A stretch of DNA of 64,000 nucleotides from Candidatus Omnitrophota bacterium (GCA_024231025.1 JAAEQW010000111.1:11055-75054); one strand, 5' to 3'; positions 21,577 through 52,317 are shown, counted from the first letter of the stretch. Numbers and translations: made by a program. Notes: generated from the sequence alone by a model not told the origin.

Positions 21577-23116
21577 TCAATTCCATTAAACTTGTATTGC
21601 CCACCCGCAACAAAAGCTTAAATTCATCGCTATATTTACGCATCATCGGCAAAAGATAACGAACTGTTTTTGTTGAAAATTCATCAAGCACCAAATATTT
21701 TATCTTGTTTTTTAAGAGCTCCTCATACACCTCATCCGGATCCAAAGAGAATTTATAACTCAAAGATTGATGCCCAGTATAAAGATAAGTGAGCCTTGGT
21801 TTGCGAGAACAAATCACTCCATCTTCTGGCAAATTTTCACTTATCCACCCATGCGCACGAACAAAATTGCCGAATCCCGGCGACAAACTTGGCGGAAAAT
21901 AGGTAGAAAAAGCTACCGTTGTCAAACAATTAACCGCAAAGATTGCAATTACCACTGATAAAAAAACTAATTGTTTCAACTTTTTAGGAAAAAGCCCCGC
22001 AACTGTTTTTGTTCCGATAAGGAAATAAAAAATCAAAAGCGGCATAAGCGGCACTAAAAAACGAATTCCCTCATGAAAGGGCCAAAAAATTACAAGAAAA
22101 AAATAAAACAAAAAATAGTAAGTCAGCACACATTTTCTATTTTCTATAAATTTACGCCACAATCCCAAAAAAATCAAGCCAGTAGTAACAAACGGTGCAA
22201 AACTCTGCCATAATTGCCATTTTGTCATAGGGTAAAGACAAATAATCTCAGCAATCCTCTTACTATAATAATCAATTCCACTTACGAAACGAGTAAAAAT
22301 ATACTCCGGATGCTGCAGGAATGTTCCTTTATCCAAAGCATAAGCGTCTACAGCAAACAACAACTTAAATTGAGACACCACATAACTGCGATATATGAAT
22401 TTAAAGACGTTCCATCCCAAAAAGACCACAAGAAAGCCACCTCCCACAAGCAAGATCTTTTTCATACCAACTTCTTTACGAGAAAACCACAGAGCAGTAA
22501 TCACGCTGAAAAATAAAATTACACCGATATGGCGAGTGAAGTAAGTTAAAGCTAACGTCAAAATAAGAAAAAGACCATCACGATTAAACCATTTCGGTTT
22601 ATCGATATATTTGCCAAGCATAAATAAGACACAAGCAGAAAAAAATAGATAGGGTATTTCCGAACGAATATATCTGGCGCAATAAATAATGTAATTCCAA
22701 TTCACCGCAAGAAAAAATATTGTAAAAAAAGCCATTTTGGAATCTGAGTATTTCTTAAAAATATGGTAAAACATGATCAAACTCAAAAATCCCAAAAAAG
22801 CTACCAGCAAATACATTAAATAAAAATTTCTCCCAAAAAAGAAAACAACAGAGGATAATAGTAGCGGGAAAACCGGCGGATACATAACGCAAATTGGCTC
22901 ACCTGGGTAATTTAACATCCGCAGGCCTTGACCACTTGCCACACTTTCAGCAACAGTAATGTATTGCGCGCTATCGCCGCCAGTATCAAAAAACTGGGGC
23001 ACAACGCTATTAAAAACAATGGCCCAAAAAAGTAAACCCAATACAATCCAGCACCAGTTAGTCTTGATAGCGCTTAGGACTTGTATTTTTGAAAATTTTA
23101 AATCATATTTTTTCAT
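21545..23116 (-). CDS. GT-C fold glycosyltransferase, ArnT/PMT-like (GT39/GT83-type)
   Basis: Polytopic. The first loop motif FFDTGGDSAQYITVAESVASGQG resembles the DE..Y.EIAREM loop of ArnT/PMT enzymes. Overlaps the upstream DPM1-like GT2 gene. Confidence 0.45.
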   Translation of the reverse strand: MKKYDLKFSKIQVLSAIKTNWCWIVLGLLFWAIVFNSVVPQFFDTGGDSAQYITVAESVASGQGLRMLNYPGEPICVMYPPVFPLLLSSVVFFFGRNFYLMYLLVAFLGFLSLIMFYHIFKKYSDSKMAFFTIFFLAVNWNYIIYCARYIRSEIPYLFFSACVLFMLGKYIDKPKWFNRDGLFLILTLALTYFTRHIGVILFFSVITALWFSRKEVGMKKILLVGGGFLVVFLGWNVFKFIYRSYVVSQFKLLFAVDAYALDKGTFLQHPEYIFTRFVSGIDYYSKRIAEIICLYPMTKWQLWQSFAPFVTTGLIFLGLWRKFIENRKCVLTYYFLFYFFLVIFWPFHEGIRFLVPLMPLLIFYFLIGTKTVAGLFPKKLKQLVFLSVVIAIFAVNCLTTVAFSTYFPPSLSPGFGNFVRAHGWISENLPEDGVICSRKPRLTYLYTGHQSLSYKFSLDPDEVYEELLKNKIKYLVLDEFSTKTVRYLLPMMRKYSDEFKLLLRVGNTSLMELNDGRNHESDE

Positions 23117-23170: not shown

Positions 23171-23872
23171 TTATTTTTTTATTCCGAATTTAAGAAAAAT
23201 AATTGGCCTTAGAATCCGCCACCAATCTACCACCGGTATCATCTTTGTGTATCCTTTATCGATAAAATAACTTTTTGTTACACCAACTTCTTTTATTTTT
23301 AAACCTAATTTTACTGCCTTATACAAAATGTATGGTTCCAGTTCGTAGCGATTTAACCATTTGGCATCGAGTTTTATCACTTCCAAAGCAGAAACTTTAA
23401 AAGCCCTAAACCCATTGGTTCCATCAGTAAAAGAAAACCCAGTACAAAAACTTAAAATAGAAGCATATATTTTGGTAGTAACTCTTCTAAACAAAGGTAT
23501 GTCCTGAGTGCTACCCCCAGCAAGCCACCTTGACCCTTGCACAAGGTCGTAGCCCTCTTCACTAATCGGCTTTACGAGCCTGGATATCTGATTAGGATTA
23601 TCCTGATTATCACCGCCCATGACTACTATGATATCTGCGCCATCTCTTTGGGCGCGACTAAAACCGCTTCTTAAAGCTGCACCAACTCCCATATTAACTT
23701 CATGCTTTATCACAATCGCACCGGCTGCGGTAGCTAAATCTGCCGTTTTATCCACAGATCCATCATCAACAACATAGATTGCTTCTAGCCCCGAAACGGC
23801 CTTAACTTTAACGACTAGACTTTCTATATGTTGTTGTTCCTGATAAGCTGGAATAACCACTGCAACTCGCAT
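23171..23872 (-). CDS. Polyprenyl-phosphate sugar synthase-type GT2 (start at internal ATG 23870-23872; TAATG coupling with upstream gene)
   Basis: [12 protein letters not shown]...VVDDGSVDKT. The stop of the upstream gene and this start share one nucleotide. Confidence 0.75.
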   Translation of the reverse strand: MRVAVVIPAYQEQQHIESLVVKVKAVSGLEAIYVVDDGSVDKTADLATAAGAIVIKHEVNMGVGAALRSGFSRAQRDGADIIVVMGGDNQDNPNQISRLVKPISEEGYDLVQGSRWLAGGSTQDIPLFRRVTTKIYASILSFCTGFSFTDGTNGFRAFKVSALEVIKLDAKWLNRYELEPYILYKAVKLGLKIKEVGVTKSYFIDKGYTKMIPVVDWWRILRPIIFLKFGIKK

Positions 23873-24981
23873 TAAAAACTCCTTAGACAAGTACTTACAT
23901 ATTCCATTTCTTCTTTTTTTAAATAGGGAAACATCGGCAACGAAACAATCTCTTTGCAAATTTGTTCTGTAATCGGGAAACTACCTTTTTTATACCCTAA
24001 AGAGCTATACGCCTTGGTTAAATGTATCGGAATTGGATAATGAATCCCCGTAGAAATACCTTTCTGCGTTAAGTAATCTTGAAACTTCTTACGCTTGGTA
24101 GTGCGAATTACATAAAGATGATAAACGTGGTATGCCTCTTTTTGCTCGTTAGGTAAAATGTATCCAACACCTTGCAAAGTTTTATTGTAGAAATGAGCTA
24201 TTTGACGTCGCATTTTATTGTGTTGATCAAGATAATTCAATTTCACTTTTAGAACTGCAGCCTGAATGGTGTCTAGCCGGCTATTATATCCTTGCATTAG
24301 ATGATGATATTTTTGTTTCTGTCCGTAGTTGCGCAACATCTCTATTTTATGGGCAATATCTTTTCGCCCGGTCACCACCATCCCACCATCTCCCAGGGCT
24401 CCCAAATTCTTAGCCGGATAAAAACTAAAACAACCGGCATCACCGAAACTACCAACTCTCTTATTCTTATACAAAGCACCATGAGCCTGGCAAGCATCCT
24501 CGACAACAGACAAGCTATACTCTCTAGCAATTTTTATAATAGAATCCATTGCCGCCGGATGTCCATAAAGGTGCACCGGCAAAATCGCCTTAACTTTTTT
24601 CGCATGAAGAAGATATTTTCTTATTTTTTGCGGGTCTAAATTATAAGTAGTAGGATCAACATCGATAAGAACCGGTTTAGCCCCCAAAGACGTGATCGCT
24701 AAAACAGTAGCAATAAACGTATTCGCAGCAGTTATAACTTTATCGCCCTTTCCAATTCCAATGGCTCTCAATGAATATTGAAGGGCATCGGTGCCCGATG
24801 CTAAACCTAGGGCGAATTTTGTTTGACAGTATTGCGCAAAATCTTTTTCAAAAAGAGAAACTTCTTCTCCCAATATAAAATTTCCCTTTTGAAAAACATT
24901 GTTAATCGCTTTCTTGATCTCTTTTTCTCTTATTTTGTGCTCACGGTTTATATTCACAAAAGAGATCGTATCTTTACTCAT
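23872..24981 (-). CDS. DegT/DnrJ/EryC1-family PLP-dependent sugar aminotransferase (WbpE-like)
   Basis: N-terminal ...LGEEV..FE..FA.Y...[12 protein letters not shown] pattern and the [15 protein letters not shown] Lys motif. Confidence 0.85.
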
Positions 24982-26002
24982 ACGAGCTACCTTCTTCTAC
25001 TTTTACAGGCTCTCCATTTTTAGCCAACGACTCCTGAAAAGCTTCCAGTATTTTTACAATTTCGAAACCGTTTTTCCCATCTGTCAAAGGCATTTTTTTC
25101 TGTTCAACGCACTCAAGAAAGTGTTCACACTGTTTTTTTAATGGTTCGTAATCACTCACTTTAGGGCTGACGATATTACCATCCCTTAGAAGAAGTTGAA
25201 ATTCTCCAAAATTTGAAATTTCACGCTCAACCTCAATACCTTTTTCAAAAATTCTTATCTTTTCTAAATTATTTAAATCATCAAAAACAATTCTCTGTCT
25301 TGCGGCAACAATGCTTACTTCTCGCTCTTTATGTGAATCTATCCAACTTACATGAATATTGGCAATTACATTGTGTGGATAAAAAAGTGTTGCGAATCCT
25401 ACGTCTTCCCTTCCTTCTCTTATAACCTGGCTGCCAACAACACTAACTTTAATTGGCATTGCCCCCAAAAGATAATTGAAAATAGATATATCATGAGGAG
25501 CAAGATCCCAAAAGGCATTCACATCCTCTCTAATCAATCCCAAATGAGTGCGGGTTGCTTTTAGATAATAAATTTTGCCACATTCACCGTTGTCAATGTA
25601 GCGTTTGATTTGGCGGATTGCTGAATTATACAAAAAAGTATGACTAACCATTAAAGCCAGCTTCCTTTCCTCAGATAATTCTACCAGCTCCTTGGCCTGA
25701 TCACTTTTTAATGTAAATGGTTTTTCAACTAAAACATGCTTGTTGCTTAGGAGCGCTTTTTTGACTAATTCATAATGGGTAGTCGCCGGAGTAGAAATGG
25801 CTACCGCTTCAATAAGTTCATCTTTTAGAATATCCTCTATGTTGTGGGAAATTTTAACCCACGAATATCTACTGCTAACATTTTTCAATTTTTCCTGATC
25901 ACAATCGTACGCGCTAACTACAATATCTTCCCGACTCTCCTTAAAAACTCGCAAATAATTTTTACCCCAATGTCCACAGCCAATAATTCCTATTCCTTTC
26001 AT
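24974..26002 (-). CDS. Gfo/Idh/MocA-family NAD-dependent sugar oxidoreductase (WbpB-like)
   Basis: [16 protein letters not shown] is a Rossmann N-terminus typical of this family. Confidence 0.8.
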
Positions 26003-26634
26003 TATAGCCTCTCCCTGTTTTTATAAGGTTCATCGGTTATTCCGCTAATACACTTTAACTCATGGATAGATTTATGCACTTTGGCAGGATTACCGTAAAC
26101 TACTGAATTCGGCGCAACGTCTCTGGTAACTACGCTACCGGCACCGATTAGACTATTTTGGCCAATTATTACACCGGGCAAAATAGTTACGTTTACTCCG
26201 ATTTGCGTTCCTTTTTTAATTGTTGGTCCGCGCATACACTTCCTTGAATGTTCACAACCGGGGTGAAAGTCATTGGCAATCATTGCTCCAGGCGCTAAAA
26301 ACACATCATCTTCAATGGTGGTAAACTGAGCAATATAGCAATTACAATGGATTCTCACATTATTGGCAATTTTGCACCCATAATCGATAACCGAATTGTT
26401 CCAAATAGAAAAATGGTTTCCAATTTTATTTTCTTCACGAATAACTACATTGTGACCAGTCTCCAGAAAGCATCCAATTTGACTACCTCCGTAGATAACC
26501 GTTCCTGAGCGTATCCTTGCTTGATCACCAATCACAAGCAAAACTGAGGGCTTAACTCTATCAGAAGGATATCCGAGCCGAACCCCATCATCTACACGAG
26601 AATTAACCCCAATTTTAAATTTTTCATGCGTCAT
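26002..26634 (-). CDS. Hexapeptide-repeat (LbH) sugar N-acetyltransferase (WbpD-like)
   Basis: Repeated [LIV]-G-x-x-x-x hexapeptides (NVRIHCNCYI, IGVNVTILPGVIIGQNSLIGAGSVV). Confidence 0.8.
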   Translation of the reverse strand: MTHEKFKIGVNSRVDDGVRLGYPSDRVKPSVLLVIGDQARIRSGTVIYGGSQIGCFLETGHNVVIREENKIGNHFSIWNNSVIDYGCKIANNVRIHCNCYIAQFTTIEDDVFLAPGAMIANDFHPGCEHSRKCMRGPTIKKGTQIGVNVTILPGVIIGQNSLIGAGSVVTRDVAPNSVVYGNPAKVHKSIHELKCISGITDEPYKNRERL

Positions 26635-26677
26635 GATTTTTAATTTGTTTAAAATTACGAATTATTGCCGGCCGGTA

Positions 26678-27532
26678 TTAGTCTATTTTCTCCATCCTTA
26701 AACTGGCAATCTGCTCAGAAACCAAACCCAGCATAAGTATGATTACAGAACTACTGAGCAAAAGTGCGCTCATATTAGTAAAACGATGCGCGTTAAAAAA
26801 AGTATAGCCGTAATAGCCTAGGCCAAGACCGCCAAACAATAAAGAAATCGGCAAAAATACTTTCAATGGAGAGAAAAACACACAAATCTTCATTATGATA
26901 ACGAAAAATCTTGTTCCATCGCTCAAAAGATTTATTTTGCTTTTTCCTTTTTGCCTAGGCAAAACAGATGCCTCAATAAATTTGACTGAATATGCGGCTT
27001 TTATAAACGATAAGGTTAATGTTGAAGGGTAAGAAAAAGTATTCGGCAAAAGATACAAAAACTTCATGGCCTTATCTTTTTTGAAAGCCCTGAACCCGGA
27101 AGTTAAATCGTCTATCTTCATCCCACTAATGTAGGAAGCTAAGCAATTGTATATATTGTTTGCTATTTTTCTCCAAAAAACCTGAGCCGACTTCGTTCTC
27201 GCTCCAACAACCATGTCAAAATCGGACAATCCCTCCAGCAACTTCGGAATTTCTTCGGGATTGTGTTGGCCGTCAGCGTCCATCAACACTATTGCCTGCC
27301 CGCTAGCTTTTCTTATGCCTCTTTTCACTGCTGCTCCATTACCCATGTTATAAGGGTTGTGAATCACGCGAGCTCCACAATCAACAGCTACTGAGGCAGT
27401 ATTATCCGTTGAGGCATCATTGATTACGATCACCTCGCACTCTTGCCCTAAAACCTCATGGATTTTAGAAATAAGATCCTTAAGACTCTCTTCCTCATTA
27501 TAAGCCGGCAAAATAACTGTTACCTTCATCAA
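26678..27532 (-). CDS. Polyprenyl-phosphate glycosyltransferase (GtrB/ArnC-like GT2 with C-terminal TM pair)
   Basis: VTVILPAYNEE...VINDASTDNT...LMDADGQHNP, plus two C-terminal hydrophobic helices. Confidence 0.8.
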   Translation of the reverse strand: MMKVTVILPAYNEEESLKDLISKIHEVLGQECEVIVINDASTDNTASVAVDCGARVIHNPYNMGNGAAVKRGIRKASGQAIVLMDADGQHNPEEIPKLLEGLSDFDMVVGARTKSAQVFWRKIANNIYNCLASYISGMKIDDLTSGFRAFKKDKAMKFLYLLPNTFSYPSTLTLSFIKAAYSVKFIEASVLPRQKGKSKINLLSDGTRFFVIIMKICVFFSPLKVFLPISLLFGGLGLGYYGYTFFNAHRFTNMSALLLSSSVIILMLGLVSEQIASLRMEKID

Positions 27533-29343: not shown

Positions 29344-30303
29344 ATGAATGATTTTGACCCCACTCAAAGTAAAATTCTTTTAGCAACCGAAGACCTAAAA
29401 TTACAAGATTTTATCACGCTAATCCTTATGGGAGAAGGGTACAATATAAAAGCCTTCTTCAACCAAGACGACCTATCGCAAGAGCTTAAAAAAGAGCCCG
29501 TAGACTTGATAATCATAGATTTTTTGTCGCCAAAGATAAATGGTCTGGAGTTTTGTAAAACCATCAGAGAAAACTTTACATCAAAATACACTCCTGTCTT
29601 ATTAATTGTACCCGAAGAAACCCCCTTATTAAAAACAAAAGCTATTTTTACCGGTGCGAACGATTTTATTGAAAAACCGTTCTCATCCGAAGAACTTTTA
29701 GCCAGAACCAAAGCTTCTCTGCTTCGCGCTCAAAGATATCAAGACACTAACCCATTAACTAAGCTCCCTGGCATGTCTACTACAGTAAAAGAATTGAATA
29801 TCCGTATAGAGTCGAAAGAGCAATTTGGCGCGGCTTATTGCGATCTTGGCAGTCTAAGGCGATACAACGAACGCTATGGCTTTAAACAAGGCGACCAGCT
29901 CCTTAAATATATTGCAAAACTTCTCACGCATTCTCTTAAAAGCTTAGGTAATCCATCAGATTTCCTTGCTCACATTGGTAGCGATGACTTCTTCTTTATC
30001 ACTTGTGCCGACGGAATTGAGCCAATATGTAAAAAAATTATCAATGACTTCGAGCAGACAATTACCGATTTTTATAACGACGAAGACAAAAAACAAGGTT
30101 ATGCCATCATAAAAAACAGAAAAGGAGAGGTTTCTAAAATACCCCTTCTTCGCATGCATATCGGTGCAGTCACCAATGAGTTCTTTCCATTTGTTTCTGC
30201 CGCGATGGTGCTTCAGATTACCACTGAGCTCAAAAATCACGCTAAGAAATTTCAGAAAAGTACCTATATAAAAGAGCGAAGAAAATCTTACCCATTTTGT
30301 TAA
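29344..30303 (+). CDS. Response regulator: REC + degenerate GGDEF (GSDDF) domain
   Basis: REC with DLIIIDF...EKPF. A GGDEF-like fold (CDLGSLRRYNERYGFKQGDQLL) in which the GG[DE]EF motif reads HIGSDDFFF and no RxxD I-site is present. Confidence 0.7.
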   Translation: MNDFDPTQSKILLATEDLKLQDFITLILMGEGYNIKAFFNQDDLSQELKKEPVDLIIIDFLSPKINGLEFCKTIRENFTSKYTPVLLIVPEETPLLKTKAIFTGANDFIEKPFSSEELLARTKASLLRAQRYQDTNPLTKLPGMSTTVKELNIRIESKEQFGAAYCDLGSLRRYNERYGFKQGDQLLKYIAKLLTHSLKSLGNPSDFLAHIGSDDFFFITCADGIEPICKKIINDFEQTITDFYNDEDKKQGYAIIKNRKGEVSKIPLLRMHIGAVTNEFFPFVSAAMVLQITTELKNHAKKFQKSTYIKERRKSYPFC

Positions 30304-30306: not shown

Positions 30307-32241
30307 ATGCAATCTAAACAAAAAGAAAATATATTTTTCATCGTTTTAACCGCGGTTTGCTTTATTCTGTACCTTAAAAGCTTACACGGACCCTTTATCC
30401 TTGACGATAACCACATGATCGTAGAAAACTCTCTAATAAAAAATCACGCTTTTTTCCCGATGTTTTTTAAAGGGCTAGTAACAAGCTTTCCAATTGCTAA
30501 GGGAATGTGTCGGCCGCTTTTAATGCTTACTTTTGCTTTTAACTACTTAACTTGCGGTCTTAATCCAATTGGATATCGTATAATAAATATTCTTTTTCAC
30601 ATCCTAAACGTGACTCTGCTTTATGCTATCTTAAAATCGTTTAAGAAAGACTCACCGCAAGGATTGCTTTTTCTGATTAGCGCACTATTTGCTGTTCACC
30701 CCATAAATAGTGAAGCAATCATCTATATCTCTAGTCGTTCTGATTTAATGGTCACTTTTTTCATTCTAGCGGGATTTATCCTTCACGCCAAAGGCAAAAC
30801 CGTTTATTGCCTACTCCTTTACGCGGGAGCCCTACTAACAAAAGAAACCGGATTATGCTTTGGGCTCTTGATTTTTGCTTACGATTTTATAAACAAACGC
30901 TTCAGTAAAGAAAGACTTCCTTTTTATACCGGTTTGATACTGGTAACATTTTCGTATTTTTTGTACAAGATGGCATTTTTCGCCTCCCCGGGCAGTGCGC
31001 CTCTTCGATCTTACCTCTCTAATAGCGTCATTCAATCAGTAGTGACTTCTTTATACCTTAAATTATTTTTACTGCCAAACCCACTAAATTTAACTCATCC
31101 AGTTTCACTATCAATACCATCGGTTGCTTGGGCCATTTTCGTAATGATTGGATTAATTACTCTTCTGTTTGCCAGCAAAAAAAAATACCCCTTAGCAGCA
31201 TTCGCTATCGCCTGGCTATTAATTGGCTTGTTACCAAAATTTTACGCCCGCCTTGATGCGGTTAGCATGGAGCATCACTTCTATATGTCTAGCATTGGTT
31301 TATATATACTGCTGCTGGTTGTTCTAGGCGCTGTTTACTCGAACTATAAAAAATACACTCTTTATGTGGGATACGCTATCGCTCTTTGCTTTTCAATATT
31401 AATTATATTTCGTAATTTTGAATACAGCGATCCTTTGCTTTTTTGGAAATTATCTGCCAAGCGTAACCAACAATCAGGAACAATTAATAATAATCTAGGT
31501 CTAGAATATTTAAAACGAAATTTTAATAAAAAAGCAAAAGAAAGTTTTGAAAAAGCAATACTTACATCAACTCACAAAAGAACTACCGTTCATGCCATGA
31601 TTAACTTATCAAATATTTACCGAATGGAAAAAAATTATCCTAAAGCCTTAAGCCTTTTAAAAGAAACTTTAAAATTAACCACCTTCGCGGCTAATGGCGT
31701 CTATCAAGGTATCGGCATAATCTATATGAACATGGGAAAAGAAAAAGAAGCTATCGCAGCCTGGAACGAAGAACTAAAAAATTATCCCGGATCAAGCGAA
31801 ACCTTCCTAAATCTAGGCATATTTTATCTTCGCAAAAATAACACCGATCAAGCTAAAGAAGCATTTAAAAGAGCAGTCTTTACTAATTCCAGCCATTATG
31901 CCGGTTATTACGGGCTGGCTCAAACTTATGAAAAGGAGAATCAATTAGCTCAAGCGATAAGCATGTATGAGAAGGCAGCCGCACTTCAGCCTAATGATGC
32001 TGCTACCCATTACTTTTTAGGTGCTGCTTATGCTAAAATGGGAGATAGCCGGGCAATAAACGAACTAAAAAAAGCTATTTATTTTAATCCAAGATTTCAC
32101 AAGGCCCACAATGATTTAGCCATCGCTTACGCTTCATTAGTTAACCCTAAATGGAAATTGGCAAAAAAACACGCCAAAATTGCCAAAGAGTTGGGTTACA
32201 AGGTAAAGAGAGAATTTTTAGAGTTACTCAATAAAAATTAA
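30307..32241 (+). CDS. TMTC-like GT-C glycosyltransferase with C-terminal TPR repeats (paralog 1)
   Basis: The N-terminal polytopic domain has an FILDDNHM loop and CRPLLMLTFAFNYL, cf. TMTC/DUF1736 SYRPL..LTF..NY. Multiple TPRs in the C-terminal half. Confidence 0.65.
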   Translation: MQSKQKENIFFIVLTAVCFILYLKSLHGPFILDDNHMIVENSLIKNHAFFPMFFKGLVTSFPIAKGMCRPLLMLTFAFNYLTCGLNPIGYRIINILFHILNVTLLYAILKSFKKDSPQGLLFLISALFAVHPINSEAIIYISSRSDLMVTFFILAGFILHAKGKTVYCLLLYAGALLTKETGLCFGLLIFAYDFINKRFSKERLPFYTGLILVTFSYFLYKMAFFASPGSAPLRSYLSNSVIQSVVTSLYLKLFLLPNPLNLTHPVSLSIPSVAWAIFVMIGLITLLFASKKKYPLAAFAIAWLLIGLLPKFYARLDAVSMEHHFYMSSIGLYILLLVVLGAVYSNYKKYTLYVGYAIALCFSILIIFRNFEYSDPLLFWKLSAKRNQQSGTINNNLGLEYLKRNFNKKAKESFEKAILTSTHKRTTVHAMINLSNIYRMEKNYPKALSLLKETLKLTTFAANGVYQGIGIIYMNMGKEKEAIAAWNEELKNYPGSSETFLNLGIFYLRKNNTDQAKEAFKRAVFTNSSHYAGYYGLAQTYEKENQLAQAISMYEKAAALQPNDAATHYFLGAAYAKMGDSRAINELKKAIYFNPRFHKAHNDLAIAYASLVNPKWKLAKKHAKIAKELGYKVKREFLELLNKN

Positions 32242-32243
32242 AA

Positions 32244-34235
32244 ATGCTTAGTCGTCAAAAATTTATATTAGTTATCACTTGTGCTGTTTTTGTTTTTCTG
32301 CTTTACCTTTCTTCGCTGCAAACTCCTTTTATTTTCGACGATAACCATATGGTAGTACGAAATTCCTTAATTAAACATATAAAACACCTACCAGCATTTT
32401 TTAAGGGCTTTGCAACTAGCGCTCCTGTTCCCAAAGGAATGTGTCGGCCGCTTTTAATGCTTACTTTTGCCTTTAACTACTTAACTTGTGGCCTTAATCC
32501 AATTGGGTACCGCATAATAAATATTCTTTTTCATTTTCTAAACGTAGCGGTTCTATTTCTTTTGCTAAAAGAATTACTCACTAAAGTTCACGTTAAACCG
32601 CCGAATTCGATCTTTGCTTTTATTCCCACTTTAATATTTTTGGTTCATCCAATTAATATTGAAAGCATAACCTACATTTCTAGTCGTTCTGATTTAATGG
32701 TTACCTTATTCTTATTGCTGGGCATCACCTGCCACATTAAAAACAAATACTCTTTGAGCCTGCTATGTTACGCAGCAGCTCTACTGACTAAAGAAACTGC
32801 CCTTAGCTTTATTTTCTTTATCACAACTTATGACTTTATATTTCGAAAAACATCAATAAAGCAATGGTTAAAAAATAGGTTTTCCCTTTACGCCGCAATC
32901 GCTTCGGTAAGCGCACTCTATTTGATTTATAAAAATACTACATTTCGGGCTGACTATGTTGCACCACTACGGTCGTATTATTCTAATTTTCTTATTCAAG
33001 CTAGAGTTACTTTTCTTTATCTTAAGTTATTCATTTGGCCGAAAGGATTAACCTTGTTTCATTATATCCCCGACTATAAAACCATTTTTAACCTGGGAGC
33101 ATTTTTATCAGTTTCGGGATTGCTGGGAATCGTTTTTATCGGATTTAAAACAGTTAAAAAACAACCGCTTTTTTCTTTGGGGATATTTTGGTTTCTTGTA
33201 GGGTTAGCACCTAAGTTTTACGCACGGCTTAGAATCGTCGCAATGGAACATCATTTTTACCTTGCTGGTATCGGCATTTATCTAATTATTGCGTTTGGAT
33301 TAAGCAAATTTTATCCAAAACTTAAATATAAAACATATTTTACAATATGTGTAATCTCTATCCTCTCTTTGCTTACCTTTATACGAAATCTTGAATATCG
33401 AGACGATCTTATCTTTTGGAAAATAACTGCTCAACGAAATCCTCACTCGGCTAATGCCCGCATGGGCCTAGGGGTGAGATATATGAATCTTGAAATATGG
33501 TCAAAAGCAAAAGAAGAAATCGAAAAAGCTATTCCTTTAATCAAAGATGAAGAAAATGCACAAAAAGCCAAAATAAACCTCATCCGTGTTTACAAAGAAG
33601 CTGGAGAAAATGAAATGGCAGAAAAATTATTAGAAGAAACCACCCGACAAGTCGCTAAAACCGAAAGGCCACCAGCAGGAGTTCTCCAAAACTTAGGAGT
33701 TATCTACTTTTTAGCCGCCGAAGATGAAAAAGCCCTCACTATCTGGAGGAGAGCATTAAAGCTTTACCCCCAAAGTGCAGGAATTCATACTAATCTCGGC
33801 AATTATTATTTAAAAAAGAGTGCCCTGGCCAAGGCAGAAAAGTTACTTGATAAAGCTATCGAATTGGACCCCGACTCTTTAGAGGCAGTTTTTGCTTTGG
33901 GAAACTTATATCAAGTAAGTAATCGCTCTAATAAAGCTATCGCTCTCTATAAAAAGGCTCTCGCAACCGGCCACGGTAAAAAAAACCACTTATTGTACTA
34001 TAATATAGGAGCACTTTATTTAAAACAGGATGGCCACAAAGGGGTAGAGTATTTAGCTAAGGCAATTGATCTAAAACCAGATTTTGCCATGGCTTACAAC
34101 GATTTATCAGTTTTCTTTGCCTCTGTGAATCCTCCGGACTGGAAACTAGCTAAAGAATTTGCCGAAAAAGCCGCTAATTTTGGATTTAAGCCAAATGAAG
34201 AATTCTTAAAGTTCTTGGAAAATGTTGATAATTAA
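32244..34235 (+). CDS. TMTC-like GT-C glycosyltransferase with C-terminal TPR repeats (paralog 2)
   Basis: Same architecture. A 34-aa block is identical to paralog 1, with ~100 bp of near-identical DNA. Confidence 0.65.
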   Translation: MLSRQKFILVITCAVFVFLLYLSSLQTPFIFDDNHMVVRNSLIKHIKHLPAFFKGFATSAPVPKGMCRPLLMLTFAFNYLTCGLNPIGYRIINILFHFLNVAVLFLLLKELLTKVHVKPPNSIFAFIPTLIFLVHPINIESITYISSRSDLMVTLFLLLGITCHIKNKYSLSLLCYAAALLTKETALSFIFFITTYDFIFRKTSIKQWLKNRFSLYAAIASVSALYLIYKNTTFRADYVAPLRSYYSNFLIQARVTFLYLKLFIWPKGLTLFHYIPDYKTIFNLGAFLSVSGLLGIVFIGFKTVKKQPLFSLGIFWFLVGLAPKFYARLRIVAMEHHFYLAGIGIYLIIAFGLSKFYPKLKYKTYFTICVISILSLLTFIRNLEYRDDLIFWKITAQRNPHSANARMGLGVRYMNLEIWSKAKEEIEKAIPLIKDEENAQKAKINLIRVYKEAGENEMAEKLLEETTRQVAKTERPPAGVLQNLGVIYFLAAEDEKALTIWRRALKLYPQSAGIHTNLGNYYLKKSALAKAEKLLDKAIELDPDSLEAVFALGNLYQVSNRSNKAIALYKKALATGHGKKNHLLYYNIGALYLKQDGHKGVEYLAKAIDLKPDFAMAYNDLSVFFASVNPPDWKLAKEFAEKAANFGFKPNEEFLKFLENVDN

Positions 34236-34606
34236 ATACTACTGGTACAAACAGGATCGCTAGTCATAGTATAAGCAGTTACAACGCCTCTAAAAATACT
34301 AGTAGTGTAGTAATCGTTCCAGTCCACACTTGGATTAGGATGAGTAGGTAATATTCTTTCACTAAAATAGTCCGCCGCAAACGTAGCATCTAATGAGGCT
34401 GGAAATTGTGCCGTTTGATCAATCGCATAACGAGCATAGTAATTACCTAAAGCTGTTCTTATTGCCCCTAAAGATTGCGAACAAGCCGCTATTTGAGCAT
34501 CTCGCCTTAAATTTATAAACTTTGGTATCGCCATTGAAGCCAGAATTCCAATAATAACGATAACCATAATTAATTCAATAAGGGTAAACGATTTATTTTT
34601 AATCAC
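34232..34606 (-). CDS. pilA: Type IVa pilin (PilA-like), paralog B
   Basis: MIKNKS/FTLIELIMVIVIIGILA with E+5 and a C-terminal Cys pair. The stop codon overlaps the stop of the convergent TMTC-like gene (TTAA). Confidence 0.8.
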   Translation of the reverse strand: MIKNKSFTLIELIMVIVIIGILASMAIPKFINLRRDAQIAACSQSLGAIRTALGNYYARYAIDQTAQFPASLDATFAADYFSERILPTHPNPSVDWNDYYTTSIFRGVVTAYTMTSDPVCTSSI

Positions 34607-34690
34607 TGTAATCTCCTGGCATACTTCAAATATACCTTTTAAATAACAGCTATAGAGCTGTGGTTATTCCGCAACAGCATCAAGTTGTCT

Positions 34691-34720
34691 AAAAAAAAGG
34701 CCCCACAAAACTGTGGGGCC
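34691..34720 (-). terminator. Rho-independent terminator downstream of pilin paralog A
   Basis: GGCCCCACA-GTTTT-GTGGGGCC hairpin followed by T8 on the minus strand. Confidence 0.75.
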
Positions 34721-34745
34721 TTTATTGTGCTAACTAAAAAGCAAC

Positions 34746-35117
34746 TTAGATACTGTCGGTACAAATAGGAGCATTGCTTAAAGTATACGCAGTTGCGACA
34801 GAACCAACAAGGCTAGGGACGTAATAACTATCCCAAAGAGCACCTTGAGGATGGCCTGGTAGTGTTCTTTCAGCAAGATAATCTACCGCAAAAGTTCCAG
34901 CCAATTTGGTTGGAAATTGTGCTGTCTGGTCAATCGCAAAACGAGCGTAATAATTAGAAAGCGCAGTCCTAATAGCTGATAAGCTTCCTTCGCAAGCTGC
35001 CATTTGAGCATCTCTTCTCAAATTAACAAACTTAGGCACAGCAATAGCAGCTAAAATACCAATGATAACAATAACCATGATCAACTCGATAAGAGTAAAA
35101 CCTTTTCTCATAAACAT
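34746..35117 (-). CDS. pilA: Type IVa major pilin (PilA-like), paralog A
   Basis: MFMRKG/FTLIELIMVIVIIGILA with a canonical G-1/F+1/E+5. Strong SD (AGGAGGTGA) and its own terminator. Confidence 0.85.
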   Translation of the reverse strand: MFMRKGFTLIELIMVIVIIGILAAIAVPKFVNLRRDAQMAACEGSLSAIRTALSNYYARFAIDQTAQFPTKLAGTFAVDYLAERTLPGHPQGALWDSYYVPSLVGSVATAYTLSNAPICTDSI

Positions 35118-35534: not shown

Positions 35535-36488
35535 CTACCCCCCAATGGGGCCATCCGAAGGGGGATCAATTTCGGCTTTCCAATCGGGAACTTGTTTTAC
35601 TTCAGCTAAAATACTTTTTATGATATCCTCTCTTATTTCCAGAAATTTGACCCCAAGAAAATACCGCCCGCCACGCTCGAGGTTGCAACGCACAACCTCT
35701 GCACTGGCCTCATACGAAGAGTCTTTTGATGGAAATTTAATCATTACTTTCGAATATGGAGGCAAAAATATAAAAGTTCTTATCCCCAGAGCATTACCGC
35801 TGGCAGAAATATCCAAAACCGTAGCCGAAACATACGATGATGACACAAGCTTTACGCGCTCATCCACAGGTTTAAAATCAACCGGAAGTTTTATTGACAA
35901 TCTTTCCGATTCTCGCCAAAAAGGCATCAAGCCAAGCCCCTGTGGAGACACAATTAAATCTTCTAAGTCAAAATACTTGTCATCTGGTCCAAAAAATGCG
36001 TTTACTGCTCCTTGAATAGCGCTTGGGGTGCCAAACACCGGATAAATCTCTAAATCAGTAGCCTGCATTGTGAGAGTGCTCACTAAACCAGCATCCAAGG
36101 GATTGGCCATGCAAACATACATGATATTTTCCACTTTAAAAATCGGCAAGAAATAATTTTCCCGATAGAGAGCTTCGGGAAAAAAGCTTAAAAGTTCTGG
36201 ATCCAATTCGTAATCACTGATTCTTAAAAAGGGGATCAAGGCATGTTGAGCAAAGAACATGTAAACATCCTCTTCGGTCATAAAATTCATTCGTATCAAT
36301 GTAGAATACAAAGACTTACCGCTCTTCTGTTGCTCCTCTTTAGCCTTTATAAACTCATTAGGCTTAACCCAGGACTCTTTAATTAGTTTTGTTTCTAATC
36401 TTTCTGTCATTATTTTGATTATGGGATCTTTCTGCCGGTAACACGCGAAACCGCGGCCGCTTCGGGATGCGCCATTGCGCACCCCCAT
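35535..36488 (-). CDS. T2SSE_N (GspE/MshE N-terminal)-PilZ domain protein; start uncertain (alternative ATG at 36408-36410)
   Basis: N-terminal region matches the T2SSE_N pattern (...LDPELLSFFPEALYRENYFLPI...MANPLD...). C-terminal PilZ motifs are WRESER and DISASGNALG. Confidence 0.6.
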   Translation of the reverse strand: MGVRNGASRSGRGFACYRQKDPIIKIMTERLETKLIKESWVKPNEFIKAKEEQQKSGKSLYSTLIRMNFMTEEDVYMFFAQHALIPFLRISDYELDPELLSFFPEALYRENYFLPIFKVENIMYVCMANPLDAGLVSTLTMQATDLEIYPVFGTPSAIQGAVNAFFGPDDKYFDLEDLIVSPQGLGLMPFWRESERLSIKLPVDFKPVDERVKLVSSSYVSATVLDISASGNALGIRTFIFLPPYSKVMIKFPSKDSSYEASAEVVRCNLERGGRYFLGVKFLEIREDIIKSILAEVKQVPDWKAEIDPPSDGPIGG

Positions 36489-38539: not shown

Positions 38540-39760
38540 TTACTTCATTGCTCCAATTAAACTCCACATTGGTAAAAATATCGCCAGCGCCATGCCCATA
38601 ACAACCGAACCTAAAACAGCAGTCATTATCGGTTCAATCAATGCTGTTAGCCCTCCCATAGCATTTCTTACTTCCATTGTGTAATAGTCGCATAAAGAAT
38701 CAAGCATTGCTGATAGGGCTCCTGCCTTTTCGCCAATCGCAATCATATATCCAACAAGTCGTGGAAATAGCTTGCTAGCTAAAATCCCACCTGATACGCC
38801 CTTTCCGTCAGCAACATCTATCTTGATTCTGTCAATATCCTTTGCTAAAACAACATTACCAATAGTAACTTTAACAATATCAAGGATTTTTAGTATCGGC
38901 AAACCCGCCTGATATAAAACATTAAGCATCGACGCAAATCTAAGCATAACTATTTTATTGTAGACTTTACCAAACACGGGCATATTAAACTTGAAATTAT
39001 CCCATATTTTTCTTCCACCGGGAGTATTGATAAAGAATTTAAGACTAAAAATTATACCGACAAATGACGGAAAAGTAATGAACCAGTAATTTTTAAAACC
39101 TTTACTAACTAAGATCATAACTCTGGTAGGAAGCGGAAGCTCCATTTTCATTCCAATATATATTTTGGTAAACTGAGGCACAACAAATACCGATAAAACA
39201 AAAACAGCTATGAACAAAGCTACAACAACCATAACCGGATATTGTAAAGCCGCCTTGATGCTAGATCTAGTTTCTCGTTCTTCTTCTAGCACTTCAGAGA
39301 GACGCAATAGAATTTTATCTAAAACACCGCCAGCCTCACCAGCGATTACCGTGCTAACATACAAATCACTAAAGACTCCCGGATGTTTTGCCATAGATTC
39401 GGAAAGTTTTGAACCTTCTTCAATGTCATGGATAATTTGATGAAGCGCGCCTTTCAATGCTGCATCTTCGGCCTGCTCGGCTAAAACGCCCAAGCCTTCA
39501 ACAATCGGAACGGCCGCTTTAATAACCGTGGCAAACTGCCGGGTAAACACGATAACTGCCTTCATTGAGGCTTTTTTTACTCTTCCCTTAGTAAACTTAT
39601 CCAGAATTGAAACACCTTTCTCGCCCTTATAGCTTATGCTTACCGGCAAATAACCGAGCTTGGCAATTTGGGTAGAAACATCTGTTTCGTTTGCGGCATC
39701 AAGCGTACCCTTAACCGACTTGCCGCGAGAATCAACTGCTTTGTATGAATATACACCCAT
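38540..39760 (-). CDS. pilC: PilC/GspF-family platform protein (second copy)
   Basis: Duplicated T2SS-F domains. Confidence 0.85.
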   Translation of the reverse strand: MGVYSYKAVDSRGKSVKGTLDAANETDVSTQIAKLGYLPVSISYKGEKGVSILDKFTKGRVKKASMKAVIVFTRQFATVIKAAVPIVEGLGVLAEQAEDAALKGALHQIIHDIEEGSKLSESMAKHPGVFSDLYVSTVIAGEAGGVLDKILLRLSEVLEEERETRSSIKAALQYPVMVVVALFIAVFVLSVFVVPQFTKIYIGMKMELPLPTRVMILVSKGFKNYWFITFPSFVGIIFSLKFFINTPGGRKIWDNFKFNMPVFGKVYNKIVMLRFASMLNVLYQAGLPILKILDIVKVTIGNVVLAKDIDRIKIDVADGKGVSGGILASKLFPRLVGYMIAIGEKAGALSAMLDSLCDYYTMEVRNAMGGLTALIEPIMTAVLGSVVMGMALAIFLPMWSLIGAMK

Positions 39761-39764
39761 AAGT

Positions 39765-40601
39765 TTAAGTTAAGCTGAATTCTTTTATTACCGAATCAAC
39801 AAAGTTATTATCTATCTTTTTTGTTTTTTTGGCAAACCCTGAAAGTAAAATCAAATCGCACAAAGTATTAATTCTGCGAGGAATGCCTCCACTATACTTT
39901 GCAATAGATGCTACTACGTCATCGGCTAAGATAGCTACAACATCACTTTCACCATCTCCAACCGCTACCTTTATTCTATGAGCCATATAGGCGCCTACGC
40001 CTTTACCACTTAGAGGATCCAATTGACAACGAATTGGCACGCGTTGTGCCAAAGGTTTTAGCGCATCTACTTTGGCTTTTATTTCGGGTTGACCCAAAAG
40101 AATTAATGTGAGTAAAAACTTGTTTTCTGTTTGAAAATTCAATATTAACCTTAATTGTTCAAAAATTCTGGGATCTTCTATAGTATGCGCTTCATCAATT
40201 ATTACTATATTTTGCCTACCCTCTCGAGCATTATCTAAAAGTATATTATGCATTTTCTCAAGCAAAGGATCAACAAGAATCTCTGATTTTCTATCCGGTA
40301 AATCTTGCGGGCTCAGCGATCGGACTATCGCTCGTATAATCTCTGACGGTTCAGATACAAGAGGATTACTTATGTACGCTGTGCAAAATTTTTGAATCCC
40401 CAAATCTTTTAAAATAACTCTGGCAAGCAATGTCTTGCCGCAACCAAACACACCCGATAAAAGACCAGCACCAAGATTCTGAGCAACCACATAGGTAAGT
40501 TTCATCAGAGCATCCTCGTGTTGCGAAGAGAGATAAAGATACTTTGGATCCGGCGTATTTTGAAAAGGTTTCTCTTTTAAGCTCCAATATTGTTCATACA
40601 T
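39765..40601 (-). CDS. ExeA/GspA/MshM-like AAA ATPase
   Basis: N-terminal MYEQYWSLKEKPF, Walker A GVFGCGKTLL and Walker B IVIIDEAH. Confidence 0.6.
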   Translation of the reverse strand: MYEQYWSLKEKPFQNTPDPKYLYLSSQHEDALMKLTYVVAQNLGAGLLSGVFGCGKTLLARVILKDLGIQKFCTAYISNPLVSEPSEIIRAIVRSLSPQDLPDRKSEILVDPLLEKMHNILLDNAREGRQNIVIIDEAHTIEDPRIFEQLRLILNFQTENKFLLTLILLGQPEIKAKVDALKPLAQRVPIRCQLDPLSGKGVGAYMAHRIKVAVGDGESDVVAILADDVVASIAKYSGGIPRRINTLCDLILLSGFAKKTKKIDNNFVDSVIKEFSLT

Positions 40602-40762
40602 AGATTTCTCTCATACTTAGATTAACCAAAAAACGAAAAACCATAATTCAAAATTCAAAATTTCTTTCCGGAATAAAGAATTCATTTACTTTTAAATTTT
40701 ACGCTATGGTTTTACGCTTTGCGCTTTTAGTTTTTCATTAGGCTGCCACTTATCACTTGTTT

Positions 40763-42574
40763 CTATTTATTACTTAACCACCGCGTAATGCGAGACTGAT
40801 ATTCACCAAGCGACTCCTTATCAACCTTAACTTCTTTGGGCGTACTCAAACCATCCAACACCGGACCTTTTATGCTAACATAAGGCTGAACTTCCTCAAC
40901 CTTTGCTTGTTCTGGTTTCAATTCAACCTGCTCCTCGCAAACTCTAGCGACTTCTTCAAAGGTGGTAATTCCTTTCAAAATCTTTGCTCGCCCATCTTCA
41001 AATAAAAGCGTCATCCCCATCTCTTGCGCTTTTTTGCGAAGAGCAACCGGAGATGTTCCAGAATTTATCATTTCTTTCATTTCGTCATTAAGCACCATTA
41101 ATTCATACAAACCACTTCGCCCCTTGTAGCCGGTTCCTTTACAATCTGGGCACCCTTTCCCCCTATATGCAACCAAACCTTCTTTTTCCTCTATTCCCCA
41201 CTTCTTCAAAGTAGCCTTTGAAGGTTCATATTCTTCCTTACATTTAGAACAAATAACTCTTATAAGACGTTGAGCCATTATCCCAATTATTGATGCCGCA
41301 ACCAAAAAATTTTCTACGCCCATGTCTACAAGACGAGCTACTGATCCAGCTGAATCATTAGTGTGTAAGGTAGAGAACACCAAGTGCCCAGTAAGCGCAG
41401 CCTGTACTGCCATGCGAGCAGTTTCCAAGTCACGAATTTCACCGACCATGATTACATCAGGATCCTGTCGCAGAATAGCACGCAAGCCATTGGCAAAAGT
41501 AATTCCTGCTTTGGGATTAACTTGGACTTGCCTAATCAAACCTAATCTATATTCAACGGGATCTTCTAGGGTAATGATATTTCTGTCAAGTGTGTTAATC
41601 CTTGTTAAAGCCGAATAAAGCGTTGTTGTTTTCCCTGATCCAGTCGGACCAGTTGAAAGAATAATCCCGTGAGGCTTTGATATCAATTCTTCATATCTTT
41701 GCAAATCTTCATAAGTTGTAAAACCTAAGCGCTCAAGACCAATACTAACTGATGCAGTGTCAAGCAAACGCATAACAACGTTTTCTCCATGTATAGTAGG
41801 TAAGGTTGAGACACGAAAATCAATAACCTTATCCCCGATCTTCGATTGAAAATGCCCATCCTGGGGAGAACGAGACTCCGCGATATCCATTCCGCATAAA
41901 ACCTTAACCCTTGATATTATAGCTGATTCCCAATCTTTAGGTGGAGAGGGAATTTCATGCAAAACGCCATCAATACGAAATCTTATTCTGGTCATGTCTT
42001 CCTCTGGCTCGATATGAATATCTGATGCCCGATCGTGCGCCGCTTGAGCAATTACTAAATCAACTATTTTTACAATTGATGTAGTTTCACTCAAAGACTT
42101 ACCCTCTTCGGCAGCTTCTTTCAATTCACTAAATATGTCTCCGCCCTCTTTTTTATAAACCCTGTCAAGAGCCGCTTCAATATCAGTCGGGGCAGCCAAA
42201 TAAACTTCTATTGGGTAATTCGTAAATAGTTGTACTTGGTCAATTAATGAGACGTCGGCCGGATCTTGCATCGCAATGTGCAAAACTTCATCCTTAATAA
42301 AAATAGGCATTGATTGCGTGGAACGAGCCAGATCTTCCGGATAAATTTTTAGCAAATCTTCGGCAATTTCCAACTCCTCCAAATCCTTATATTTTACATT
42401 AAGTTTTTCAGATATAAGTTGGTAAAAAGCACTTTTGTCTAAAATATGCATGTCTAGAATCACAGCGTCAAGTGGACGATTCAACTTTTGCTGCTCTTCT
42501 AATGCCTTATCAAGCTCATCGGAAGTAACCAAATTTGAATTCAAAAGTAATTCTTTTAATTCTTCTTCTTGCAT
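40763..42574 (-). CDS. pilB: Type IV pilus assembly ATPase PilB (GspE family)
   Basis: N-terminal T2SSE_N domains, Walker A GPTGSGKTTT and a tetracysteine motif CSKC...CPDC. Confidence 0.9.
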   Translation of the reverse strand: MQEEELKELLLNSNLVTSDELDKALEEQQKLNRPLDAVILDMHILDKSAFYQLISEKLNVKYKDLEELEIAEDLLKIYPEDLARSTQSMPIFIKDEVLHIAMQDPADVSLIDQVQLFTNYPIEVYLAAPTDIEAALDRVYKKEGGDIFSELKEAAEEGKSLSETTSIVKIVDLVIAQAAHDRASDIHIEPEEDMTRIRFRIDGVLHEIPSPPKDWESAIISRVKVLCGMDIAESRSPQDGHFQSKIGDKVIDFRVSTLPTIHGENVVMRLLDTASVSIGLERLGFTTYEDLQRYEELISKPHGIILSTGPTGSGKTTTLYSALTRINTLDRNIITLEDPVEYRLGLIRQVQVNPKAGITFANGLRAILRQDPDVIMVGEIRDLETARMAVQAALTGHLVFSTLHTNDSAGSVARLVDMGVENFLVAASIIGIMAQRLIRVICSKCKEEYEPSKATLKKWGIEEKEGLVAYRGKGCPDCKGTGYKGRSGLYELMVLNDEMKEMINSGTSPVALRKKAQEMGMTLLFEDGRAKILKGITTFEEVARVCEEQVELKPEQAKVEEVQPYVSIKGPVLDGLSTPKEVKVDKESLGEYQSRITRWLSNK

Positions 42575-42664
42575 ATGCTTAATAAATTAAAATACTAATT
42601 CACCCCGTCAGGTACACAGCCTATATAATAGTGTATCTAGCGGGGTGAATCAATACTCTTTAAT

Positions 42665-46108: not shown

Positions 46109-46147
46109 TATAACCCAAAAAAACTGTTAGTAAAACATCTTTTGCTG

Positions 46148-46630
46148 TTACTCATCCTGCGGCAAAACCAAATAAAAACTCTCCGCCCCCCTCTTGAGGA
46201 GTACCTTATTTTTTTCTACTTCATCTACTTTATAACCGAAAACAAAGTTACCGACTGTAACTATTTCATTATTTATTATAGCATACCCTCTTCCCTTTTG
46301 GTCAATTGACACGCCTTTGAGGGTTAGGCTTGAGCCATGATAAACATCTTTATTGATTTTGTGATAGAACGGATCCATACCCCACTCGAGCCCCGCTCGT
46401 TCATGCTGTTTTCTAATCTCATCAGGGCTGGCCCTAACAAAAGTTGATTGGCTAGATGTTGCTGTTTTAGATTTAACAGCTGGAGGAAGATTTATTCCGC
46501 CAGTCGAAGTAGCCACCGCAGAGCGTGATTTTTTTTTCTTTTTCTTAGGTGCAAGATTATTAATCACGACTACAATCAACACCAACACCAAGGCACCCAC
46601 TATAATCATTTGTTTTTTTTGTTTGTCCAT
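46148..46630 (-). CDS. PilP-like protein
   Basis: Single N-terminal TM and a small beta-rich C-terminus. Positioned between pilO-like and pilQ. Confidence 0.35.
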   Translation of the reverse strand: MDKQKKQMIIVGALVLVLIVVVINNLAPKKKKKKSRSAVATSTGGINLPPAVKSKTATSSQSTFVRASPDEIRKQHERAGLEWGMDPFYHKINKDVYHGSSLTLKGVSIDQKGRGYAIINNEIVTVGNFVFGYKVDEVEKNKVLLKRGAESFYLVLPQDE

Positions 46631-46631
46631 A

Positions 46632-47228: not shown

Positions 47229-47297
47229 AAAGCTCCTTAAATTACTATCAAAATTTTATCAAGCGAAGTCCACCATAGCCTTGGCGAAGGCGGATAA

Positions 47298-52316: not shown

Positions 52317-52317
52317 A

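Follow-up and report, generated by a model that had tools for sequence, protein, structure and literature searches.

Genes at the locus

The analyzed window, a stretch of 64,000 nucleotides (nt) from a Candidatus Omnitrophota bacterium (GCA_024231025.1, JAAEQW010000111.1:11055-75054), contains two tandem genes for large membrane proteins, here called gtA and gtB, in convergent orientation to two genes for type IV pilins, pilin B and pilin A (Table 1). All four open reading frames (ORFs) lie where a complete MSHA-like pilus cluster ends and are discussed here as a candidate system for pilin O-glycosylation. The ORF layout was as described in an earlier note on this DNA: TTAA at positions 34232-34235 is the common stop overlap of gtB and pilin B, and pilin A has its own Shine-Dalgarno (SD) site and terminator. 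AGGAG-type SD sites precede both pilins. The gap between the REC-GGDEF gene and gtA is only 3 nt and that between gtA and gtB only 2 nt, which suggests that these three genes form a single operon. The public annotation of gtB (P0027, 628 aa) appears to begin at Met36, which would remove the first transmembrane (TM) helix and the conserved FIFDD. The ATG at 32244, 2 nt past the gtA stop, restores both and is probably the true start.

Class III signal peptides were found in both pilins, with a short leader, F at +1, E at +5, G or S at −1 and a hydrophobic alpha1-N segment. The N_methyl domain PF07963 was matched with E=1e-7 and 1e-6, and TIGR02532 scored above its cut-off for both. Pilin A is probably the major pilin. 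Pilin B starts with GTG and carries Ser instead of Gly at −1 (34589-34606), and its orthologues in two related loci (L005 and L038) also have Ser there. The earlier note had described Ser-rich C-terminal tails as reminiscent of C-terminal Ser glycosylation. This did not hold, as the tails (CTSSI and CTDSI) contain just two and one Ser, and the C-termini of the orthologous pilins read CT[GNAK]F, CTW, HTH or CP[KR]x; a C-terminal Ser glycosylation site was thus rejected.

Fold and family of gtA and gtB

Along their entire length, the two membrane proteins are 43% identical (BLASTP, E=5e-163). Both had been described as a polytopic N-domain with a DD loop followed by a C-terminal TPR array, which is the TMTC architecture, and the ORFs, motifs, Pfam TPR matches and structural model all agree with this description. 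The FILDDNHM/FIFDDNHM loop and the motif GMCRPLLMLTFAFNYL were found in both, and Pfam TPR_1/2 and other TPR models matched residues ~390-640 of each with E-values down to 4e-23. In the AlphaFold model, for which the confidence score (pLDDT) was 94.4 at full length, helical repeats span residues 376-643. Since full-length profile and full-length Foldseek searches were swamped by TPR proteins, the N-domain was modelled separately (pLDDT 90.7). The predicted structure is an 11-helix membrane domain with a GT-C fold, and its top Foldseek match was ArnT.

Neither protein matched DUF1736, PMT or PMT_2 in Pfam, even when the N-domain alone was searched at E<=10. Searches of the full proteins and the N-domains against Pfam and NCBIfam returned only TPR and a weak match to AZOBR_p60025, and no solved structure was matched among the PDB sequences by phmmer or by an N-domain profile hidden Markov model (HMM). 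More distant family members do match these models, namely PMT_2 in 5, TMTC_DUF1736 in 3 (best 3e-6) and PMT in 2 of 17 cases. For a direct comparison, the N-domains of human TMTC1-4 and fly TMTC1 were rebuilt into a profile from the alignment supplied with PMC7801869. Against this profile, the family N-domain profile reached a probability of 100 and an E-value of 1.4e-49 over 380 collinear columns (hhalign), and a plain BLASTP comparison of gtA with human TMTC3 gave E=5e-19 at 28% identity over 192 aa. Taken together, these results show that gtA and gtB are true TMTC homologues. The earlier note had named a missing DUF1736/TMTC HMM hit as grounds for giving up its proposal; the hit is indeed missing, yet this is misleading in view of the homology; the Pfam DUF1736 model fails on account of the divergent external loop 4 (EL4). 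gtA and gtB are most likely inner-membrane GT-C glycosyltransferases of the TMTC/ArnT lineage.

Conserved motifs and membrane topology

Seven motifs have been described for TMTC proteins: M1 DD, M2 SHKSYRP, M3 RxD, M4 KE(T/Q)xxT, M5 DW, M6 PxxP and M7 ERxxY (PMC7801869). In gtA and gtB, M1 is kept, as are M3 (R144-S-D146) and the K179-E180-T181 part of M4, the final T of which is replaced by C in gtA and S in gtB. M7 retains E322 and Y326 with R changed to H, M2 has shrunk to C-R-P (R69-P70), and M6 is not kept, with a single P310 left. Across 64 homologues, D33, D34, R69, P70, H131, P132, E136, K179, E322, Y326 and R369 are nearly or fully invariant; D34 shows no exception, and D33 is at least 90% conserved. 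The equivalent of this dipeptide in gtB lies in FIFDD.

The motif-bearing loops take turns with short K/R-rich ones (113-117, 162-164, 196-203, 290-294 and 345-350). This alternation, read by homology and the positive-inside rule, indicates a topology in which the N-terminus lies in the cytoplasm, 11 TM helices span the membrane, and the conserved motifs and the TPR array are all periplasmic. The motif-bearing loops and the TPR array are thereby predicted to share the compartment in which a membrane-anchored prepilin presents its globular domain.

A TPR array beside pilin genes could also point to a scaffold or chaperone for pilus assembly, similar to PilF/PilW/Tgl or TfpY, in which the GT-C domain would be catalytically irrelevant. 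The TPR part shows weak NCBIfam similarity to PilW/Tgl, and the Asp of M5 is missing. However, these matches are those of generic TPRs and, at 64-67 bits, stay far under the cut-off of 154, and a PilW/Tgl pilotin identity of the TPR part was rejected on this basis. The (near-)invariance of DD, RP, HP..E, K179, E322 and Y326 among the 64 homologues argues for a working active site, and the pilus operon already has a separate small TPR protein (42665-43315). We therefore consider a pure scaffold function very improbable.

Linkage of pilin and glycosyltransferase genes in related loci

Pilin-like ORFs, and homologues of genes from the window, were scored in a total of 82 related loci (labelled L001 and so on). 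The loci include a close clade with at least 35% identity (27 unique loci, all from Omnitrophota-type metagenome-assembled genomes) and a distant set of 53 loci. In 19 of the 27 close-clade loci, a pilin is encoded within 1 kb of the glycosyltransferase gene or genes. At distances of up to 300 bp there were 18 pilins, compared to 1.4 expected under uniform placement (P~1e-14, a value that overstates independence because the loci are phylogenetically related), while the remainder of the 362 kb of close-clade loci contained a single pilin-like ORF. The co-localization of TMTC-like and pilin genes that the earlier note had proposed to survey is clear in the close clade and modest in the distant loci.

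The linked pilins belong to one orthologous family of 110-133 aa, and the gene order, which is strikingly constant, is secretin...T2SSE - AAA_22 - T2SSF - (histidine kinase/PilZ/REC) - MshEN-PilZ - pilin - GT-C/TPR - (REC-GGDEF) - GT2_284, where GT2_284 is the 284-aa glycosyltransferase listed in Table 1. In 11 loci the GT-C gene lies directly downstream of the pilin on the same strand, with gaps of mostly ~26-73 nt (163 nt in L021 and 760 nt in L038), as in pilA-tfpW of Pseudomonas aeruginosa. A convergent arrangement like that in the window occurs in seven loci, usually with two or three tandem GT-C copies, and a divergent one in a single locus. GT2_284 orthologues flank the GT-C gene in 13/27 loci. 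Pilin adjacency in three orientations, usually with a GT2 gene alongside, supports a periplasmic glycosylation of pilin from a polyprenyl-phosphate sugar. In many relatives, the REC-GGDEF orthologue stands between the GT-C and GT2 genes in opposite orientation, unlike the apparent co-transcription here.

Pilus-linked cases in the distant set were found in a Paceibacterota (L075) and an Elusimicrobiota locus (L060) and among Omnitrophota paralogues (L055 and L037). The members in L075 (9923-14000) and L060 (9446-11659), which lie beside pilin genes, have 25-27% identity; in L075 the order is GT2 - GT-C - GT2 - pilin, and T2SSF and T2SSE genes come after the pilin. In four Gemmatimonadota/Latescibacterota loci (L034, L040, L046 and L054), 5-9 GT-C/TPR paralogues follow one another head to tail and no pilin is close by, and such arrays suggest large client-specific enzyme families in other phyla. 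At E<=1e-3 the family comprises 53,681 representatives (50% clusters), of which only 104 remain at E<=1e-30, so pilin linkage characterizes one small branch.

Gene conversion between the tandem paralogues

The earlier note had reported a near-identical tract of about 100 nt in gtA and gtB. The tract is real, with ~94/100 nt identical (30502-30601 versus 32436-32535), but it covers the RP motif and TM2 and not the DD dipeptide; the note had placed it across the catalytic loop. Codons 61-99 (30487-30603 versus 32421-32537) show 89-90% nt identity, compared to ~50% elsewhere. The same codon is used at 24/31 identical amino-acid positions inside the tract versus 108/245 outside (Fisher p=5e-4).

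Far longer blocks of this kind, reaching about 450 nt, were observed in the tandem pairs of three relatives, with 97-100% nt identity over codons ~24-173 in L001 (9050-12953), 97-100% over codons ~34-190 in L006 (9956-13823) and 91-95% over codons 1-141 in L008 (1-3914). Beyond these tracts, identity drops to 40-55%. The block in the relatives extends from loop 1 to TM5 and includes the DD, RP, HP..E and RSD motifs, while divergence persists in loop 4 and the TPR array. Each pair shares residues specific to its genome (LTCG...GYR in the window, ATSK in L001, WGGG...GYR in L006). These patterns indicate recurrent partial gene conversion in several independent genomes, apparently confined to the catalytic half, of which the window's tract would be a shorter, decayed version. 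The outcome would be a modular concerted evolution, in which the putative donor-binding and catalytic half is homogenized and the putative acceptor-recognition half is not. A history in which gtA is the position-1 and gtB the position-2 orthologue was rejected, as a rough neighbor-joining tree places gtB beside the L002 copies instead of in the position-2 clade formed by L001, L004 and L006.

A catalytic half that is homogenized next to diverged EL4 and TPR parts would also suit broad periplasmic protein O-glycosyltransferases. Their clients would then be several proteins of the envelope or surface (adhesins, the secretin and minor pilins are possible examples), the major pilin would be at most one of many, and the paralogues would differ in the clients specified by their TPR arrays. 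Sets of proteins serve as substrates for the TMTC and PMT relatives (PMC7801869), the tandem arrays of 5-9 paralogues in other phyla lack a pilin, and copies of the close clade occur outside pilus loci. The adjacency to one orthologous pilin family, which has resisted rearrangement, nevertheless speaks for a dedicated relationship in the sub-clade, and we regard a broad specificity as rather unlikely.

Neighboring genes and candidate sugar donor

Table 1. Features of the window, with positions counted from its first nucleotide.
Feature	Position	Strand	Description	Evidence
gtA	30307-32241	+	644 aa; GT-C (TMTC/ArnT-like) membrane domain residues 1-375, C-terminal TPR array 376-643	ORF, Pfam TPR, AlphaFold, GT-C fold, TMTC homology
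gtB	32244-34235	+	663 aa; gtA paralogue with the same architecture	ORF, Pfam, BLASTP
Pilin B	34232-34606	-	124 aa, GTG start, type IV pilin MIKNKS/FTLIEL (/ = cleavage site)	ORF, PF07963, TIGR02532
Pilin A	34746-35117	-	123 aa, type IV pilin MFMRKG/FTLIEL (/ = cleavage site), strong SD	ORF, PF07963, TIGR02532
Intrinsic terminator hairpin	34696-34723	-	12-bp stem, just 3' of pilin A	
REC-GGDEF response regulator	29344-30303	+	Motif GSDDF; orthologue is a conserved neighbor of the GT-C genes	
Near-identical tract, gtA copy	30502-30601	+	Codons ~61-99: RP motif, EL1 helix, TM2	
Near-identical tract, gtB copy	32436-32535	+		
GT2_284	26678-27532	-	GT2, 284 aa, two C-terminal TM helices, AglJ/ArnC/GtrB/DPM1 type; candidate polyprenyl-P-sugar synthase	
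Sugar-modifying genes	23872-26634	-	DegT/PseC-type aminotransferase, UDP-GlcNAc 3-dehydrogenase-like oxidoreductase, hexapeptide acetyltransferase; candidate acetamido-sugar donor route	
MshEN + PilZ protein	35535-36488	-	Cyclic di-GMP-binding domains; conserved pilin neighbor	
MSHA-like type IV pilus machinery	38540-49049	-	T2SSF platform, AAA_22, MshEN-T2SSE ATPase, TPR protein, secretin, PilO, PilM-PilN	
Three pilin-like ORFs	51301-53001	-	Candidate minor pilins	

Upstream of gtA, a large glycan operon runs divergently from the GT-C genes and contains, besides sugar-modifying enzymes and an MBOAT protein, four GT2 genes of the ArnC/GtrB/DPM1 type (GT2_284, 23171-23959, 20851-21576 and 18044-19399) and a second GT-C gene of the PMT_2 type without TPR (21545-23116). 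The earlier note had counted three DPM1-like polyprenyl-phosphate-sugar synthases here, whereas four such candidates are present. The best NCBIfam matches of the four are AglJ, a Dol-P-hexose transferase, PpgS, ArnC or PgfS, all below the curated cut-offs; those of the GT2_284 orthologues are AglJ, the Dol-P-hexose transferase, PpgS and ArnC. The oxidoreductase/aminotransferase/acetyltransferase trio directly before GT2_284 (together 23872-27532) resembles the WbpB/E/D logic for a 3-acetamido sugar and, by this analogy, hints at the identity of the donor. At 12614-13558, within the glycan gene cluster, an IS200-type Y1 transposase is either fused to a DnaA_C-like helix-turn-helix or followed by one.

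With such an operon next to the GT-C genes, the acceptor could instead be something other than a protein, namely lipid A, the lipopolysaccharide (LPS) core or a surface polysaccharide. gtA and gtB would then belong to a GtrB/flippase/GT-C system like ArnC/ArnT, and the pilins would be close only because the glycan island abuts the pilus cluster. ArnT as the top Foldseek match and the adjoining, divergent set of four GT2s, a PMT_2 GT-C, sugar-modifying enzymes and an MBOAT protein would suit this explanation, and three-component GT-C systems are common in glycan modification (PMC11127046). However, the far-upstream context varies between loci, with ROK/TAL/LptD in L001 and L004, GT9/PMT_2 in L002 and the glycan operon in the window, while the pilin-GT junction is kept. 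Furthermore, TPRs in GT-C enzymes go together with protein acceptors (TMTC, TfpW), and the TPR-less GT-C is already on hand for glycan modification. A non-protein acceptor is thus unlikely in our view.

On the minus strand, downstream of the GT-C genes, the pilus cluster also holds a REC/PilZ/histidine-kinase trio beside the MshEN-PilZ gene. The nearby MshEN and PilZ domains suggest that the pilus is controlled by cyclic di-GMP (c-di-GMP). The REC-GGDEF protein itself carries GSDDF instead of GGDEF and may be catalytically degenerate. Beyond the pilus cluster, a giant minus-strand ORF (56024-63931) encodes 2635 aa; very long proteins have been reported as a trait of Omnitrophota (bioRxiv 10.64898/2026.06.07.730766).

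Comparison with known systems

The closest counterpart by published description is TfpW of P. aeruginosa group IV (Pa5196/PA7), a pilin D-arabinofuranosyltransferase of 646 aa that is required for pilin glycosylation and uses polyprenyl-P-arabinofuranose as donor (bioRxiv 10.1101/2020.04.19.049825). It has a cytoplasmic N-terminus, 11 predicted TM helices, a DDx motif in periplasmic loop 1, a proline motif of the Y-x6-P type in loop 4 and, at the C-terminus, a TPR domain that is large and periplasmic; ArnT was the best template, the TPR domain of OGT was the best C-terminal match, and the gene lies directly downstream of pilA (bioRxiv 10.1101/2020.04.19.049825). gtA and gtB (644 and 663 aa) resemble it in length, N-in topology, the 11 TM helices, the DDx of loop 1, the ArnT-like model and the C-terminal TPR array, for which an OGT-type TPR is again the best match. 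The proline motif of loop 4 corresponds to Y250-x6-P257, the genes likewise adjoin a pilin gene, and a polyprenyl-phosphate monosaccharide is the probable donor here too. The differences concern the donor genes, which belong to the DprE1/E2 decaprenyl-P-arabinofuranose pathway in TfpW strains and to the GtrB/ArnC-type GT2s here, and the arrangement, as tfpW lies downstream of its pilin gene whereas two tandem paralogues converge on two pilins in an MSHA-type cluster of Omnitrophota. The earlier view that a TMTC-type enzyme had not been described in a pilin role was overstated, since TfpW has the same design by description. By analogy, the design would be one already known in TfpW, and the present system would be a TMTC-related variant instead of a new category.

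In eukaryotes, TMTC1-4 are protein O-mannosyltransferases of the endoplasmic reticulum that act on cadherins. gtA and gtB share with them homology over the whole membrane domain, 11 TM helices with a C-terminal TPR array on the non-cytoplasmic side, and the conserved M1 (DD), M3 (RxD), K-E-T of M4 and E and Y of M7. They differ in lacking a Pfam DUF1736 match, in M5 (T/F-H), M2 (C-R-P) and the lost M6, and also in the proposed donor (an undecaprenyl-P-sugar, not Dol-P-Man) and the proposed acceptor (pilin, not cadherin). Full-length TMTC homologues exist in prokaryotes and are functionally uncharacterized (PMC7801869), and no paper connecting them with pili was found in the literature searched.

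ArnT (GT83) and the PMT/Pmt enzymes (GT39) differ from gtA and gtB in having no TPR; a MIR domain is found in PMTs, and the substrate of ArnT is lipid A. The cyanobacterial Ogt/OgtA, which combines TPR with GT41, is encoded beside pilin genes in 38% of cyanobacterial genomes and is required for PilA glycosylation (PMC9306852). It is comparable as a TPR-bearing glycosyltransferase next to pilin genes; with its GT-B fold, cytoplasmic location, UDP-GlcNAc donor and N-terminal TPR, however, it is an analogue and not a homologue. PglL and TfpO (PilO) are likewise pilin-adjacent accessory genes for periplasmic pilin glycosylation from a lipid-linked donor. In contrast to gtA and gtB, they belong to the Wzy_C/O-antigen-ligase family and transfer preassembled undecaprenyl-diphosphate-linked oligosaccharides, TfpO to a C-terminal Ser. 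A Wzy_C/O-antigen-ligase domain was not present here in the Pfam and NCBIfam searches.

Proposed mechanism and its weighing

We consider it moderately likely that the locus encodes a TfpW-like system, in which a GtrB/ArnC-type GT2 makes an undecaprenyl-P-sugar that gtA and gtB transfer in the periplasm to Ser/Thr of pilins A and B before pilus assembly. This assignment builds on the fold, the homology, the conserved motifs, the topology and the conserved gene linkage, which are shown, whereas the acceptor, the donor and the site are inferred. At the cytoplasmic face, GT2_284 would load undecaprenyl phosphate with a monosaccharide, which may be an acetamido sugar produced by the neighboring trio of dehydrogenase, aminotransferase and acetyltransferase, and the lipid-linked sugar would be flipped to the periplasmic face. 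There, the DD dipeptide of loop 1 would catalyze the transfer, K179/E180 and E322/Y326 would hold the phosphate, and the TPR array would dock the pilin. The sugar would thus end up on Ser/Thr in the globular domain that the membrane-anchored pilin A or B exposes to the periplasm, possibly with some division of labor between the paralogues. Finally, the c-di-GMP-controlled MSHA-like machine would polymerize the glycosylated pilin.

Several observations weigh against this mechanism. At the locus itself, the GT-C genes are convergent with the pilins and seemingly co-transcribed with REC-GGDEF and not with a pilin, and a flippase for the lipid-linked sugar was not found. In the enzymes, M5 (DW, in the DUF1736 loop) is lost, as T263-H264 in gtA and F-H in gtB replace the metal-ligand Asp and the Trp, and in the orthologous pilins a conserved Ser/Thr sequon was sought and not found. 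With regards to linkage, the close-clade loci L007/L017, L023 and L030 lie in unrelated contexts with no adjoining pilin, the 53 distant loci show an only modest enrichment (4 pilins observed versus 0.75 expected, P=0.007), and most members of the huge family (53,681 representatives) are not located beside pilins. Furthermore, much of the close-clade signal may be synteny inherited within one phylum. Overall, the interpretation given in the earlier note is partly supported.

Biological significance

On a wider scale, we tentatively propose one ancient family of GT-C + TPR enzymes for the decoration of adhesive surface proteins, with pilin modification of the TfpW type as one branch and the O-mannosylation of cadherins in animals as another. 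The prokaryotic TMTC homologues would then include a clade of dedicated pilin O-glycosyltransferases, in which tandem paralogues repeatedly homogenize their donor-binding half by gene conversion while EL4 and the TPR array remain diverged. Such recurrent partial conversion would be a clean natural case of modular concerted evolution within one enzyme. Human TMTCs are disease genes, and if the assignment is correct, a bacterial homologue whose substrate is small and defined would be a tractable model for the choice of acceptors by their TPR arrays.

Phages specific for the pilus are blocked in Pseudomonas when TfpO or TfpW glycosylates the pilin (PMC11841053), and by analogy the system described here may be a device for phage evasion or for the tuning of adhesion. 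If true, our assignment would provide the first functional context for a very large, unstudied bacterial TMTC-like family. It would also carry pilin glycosylation of the TfpW kind into the Omnitrophota, an uncultivated phylum whose bacteria are ultra-small and possibly host-dependent and whose pili are likely central to attachment.

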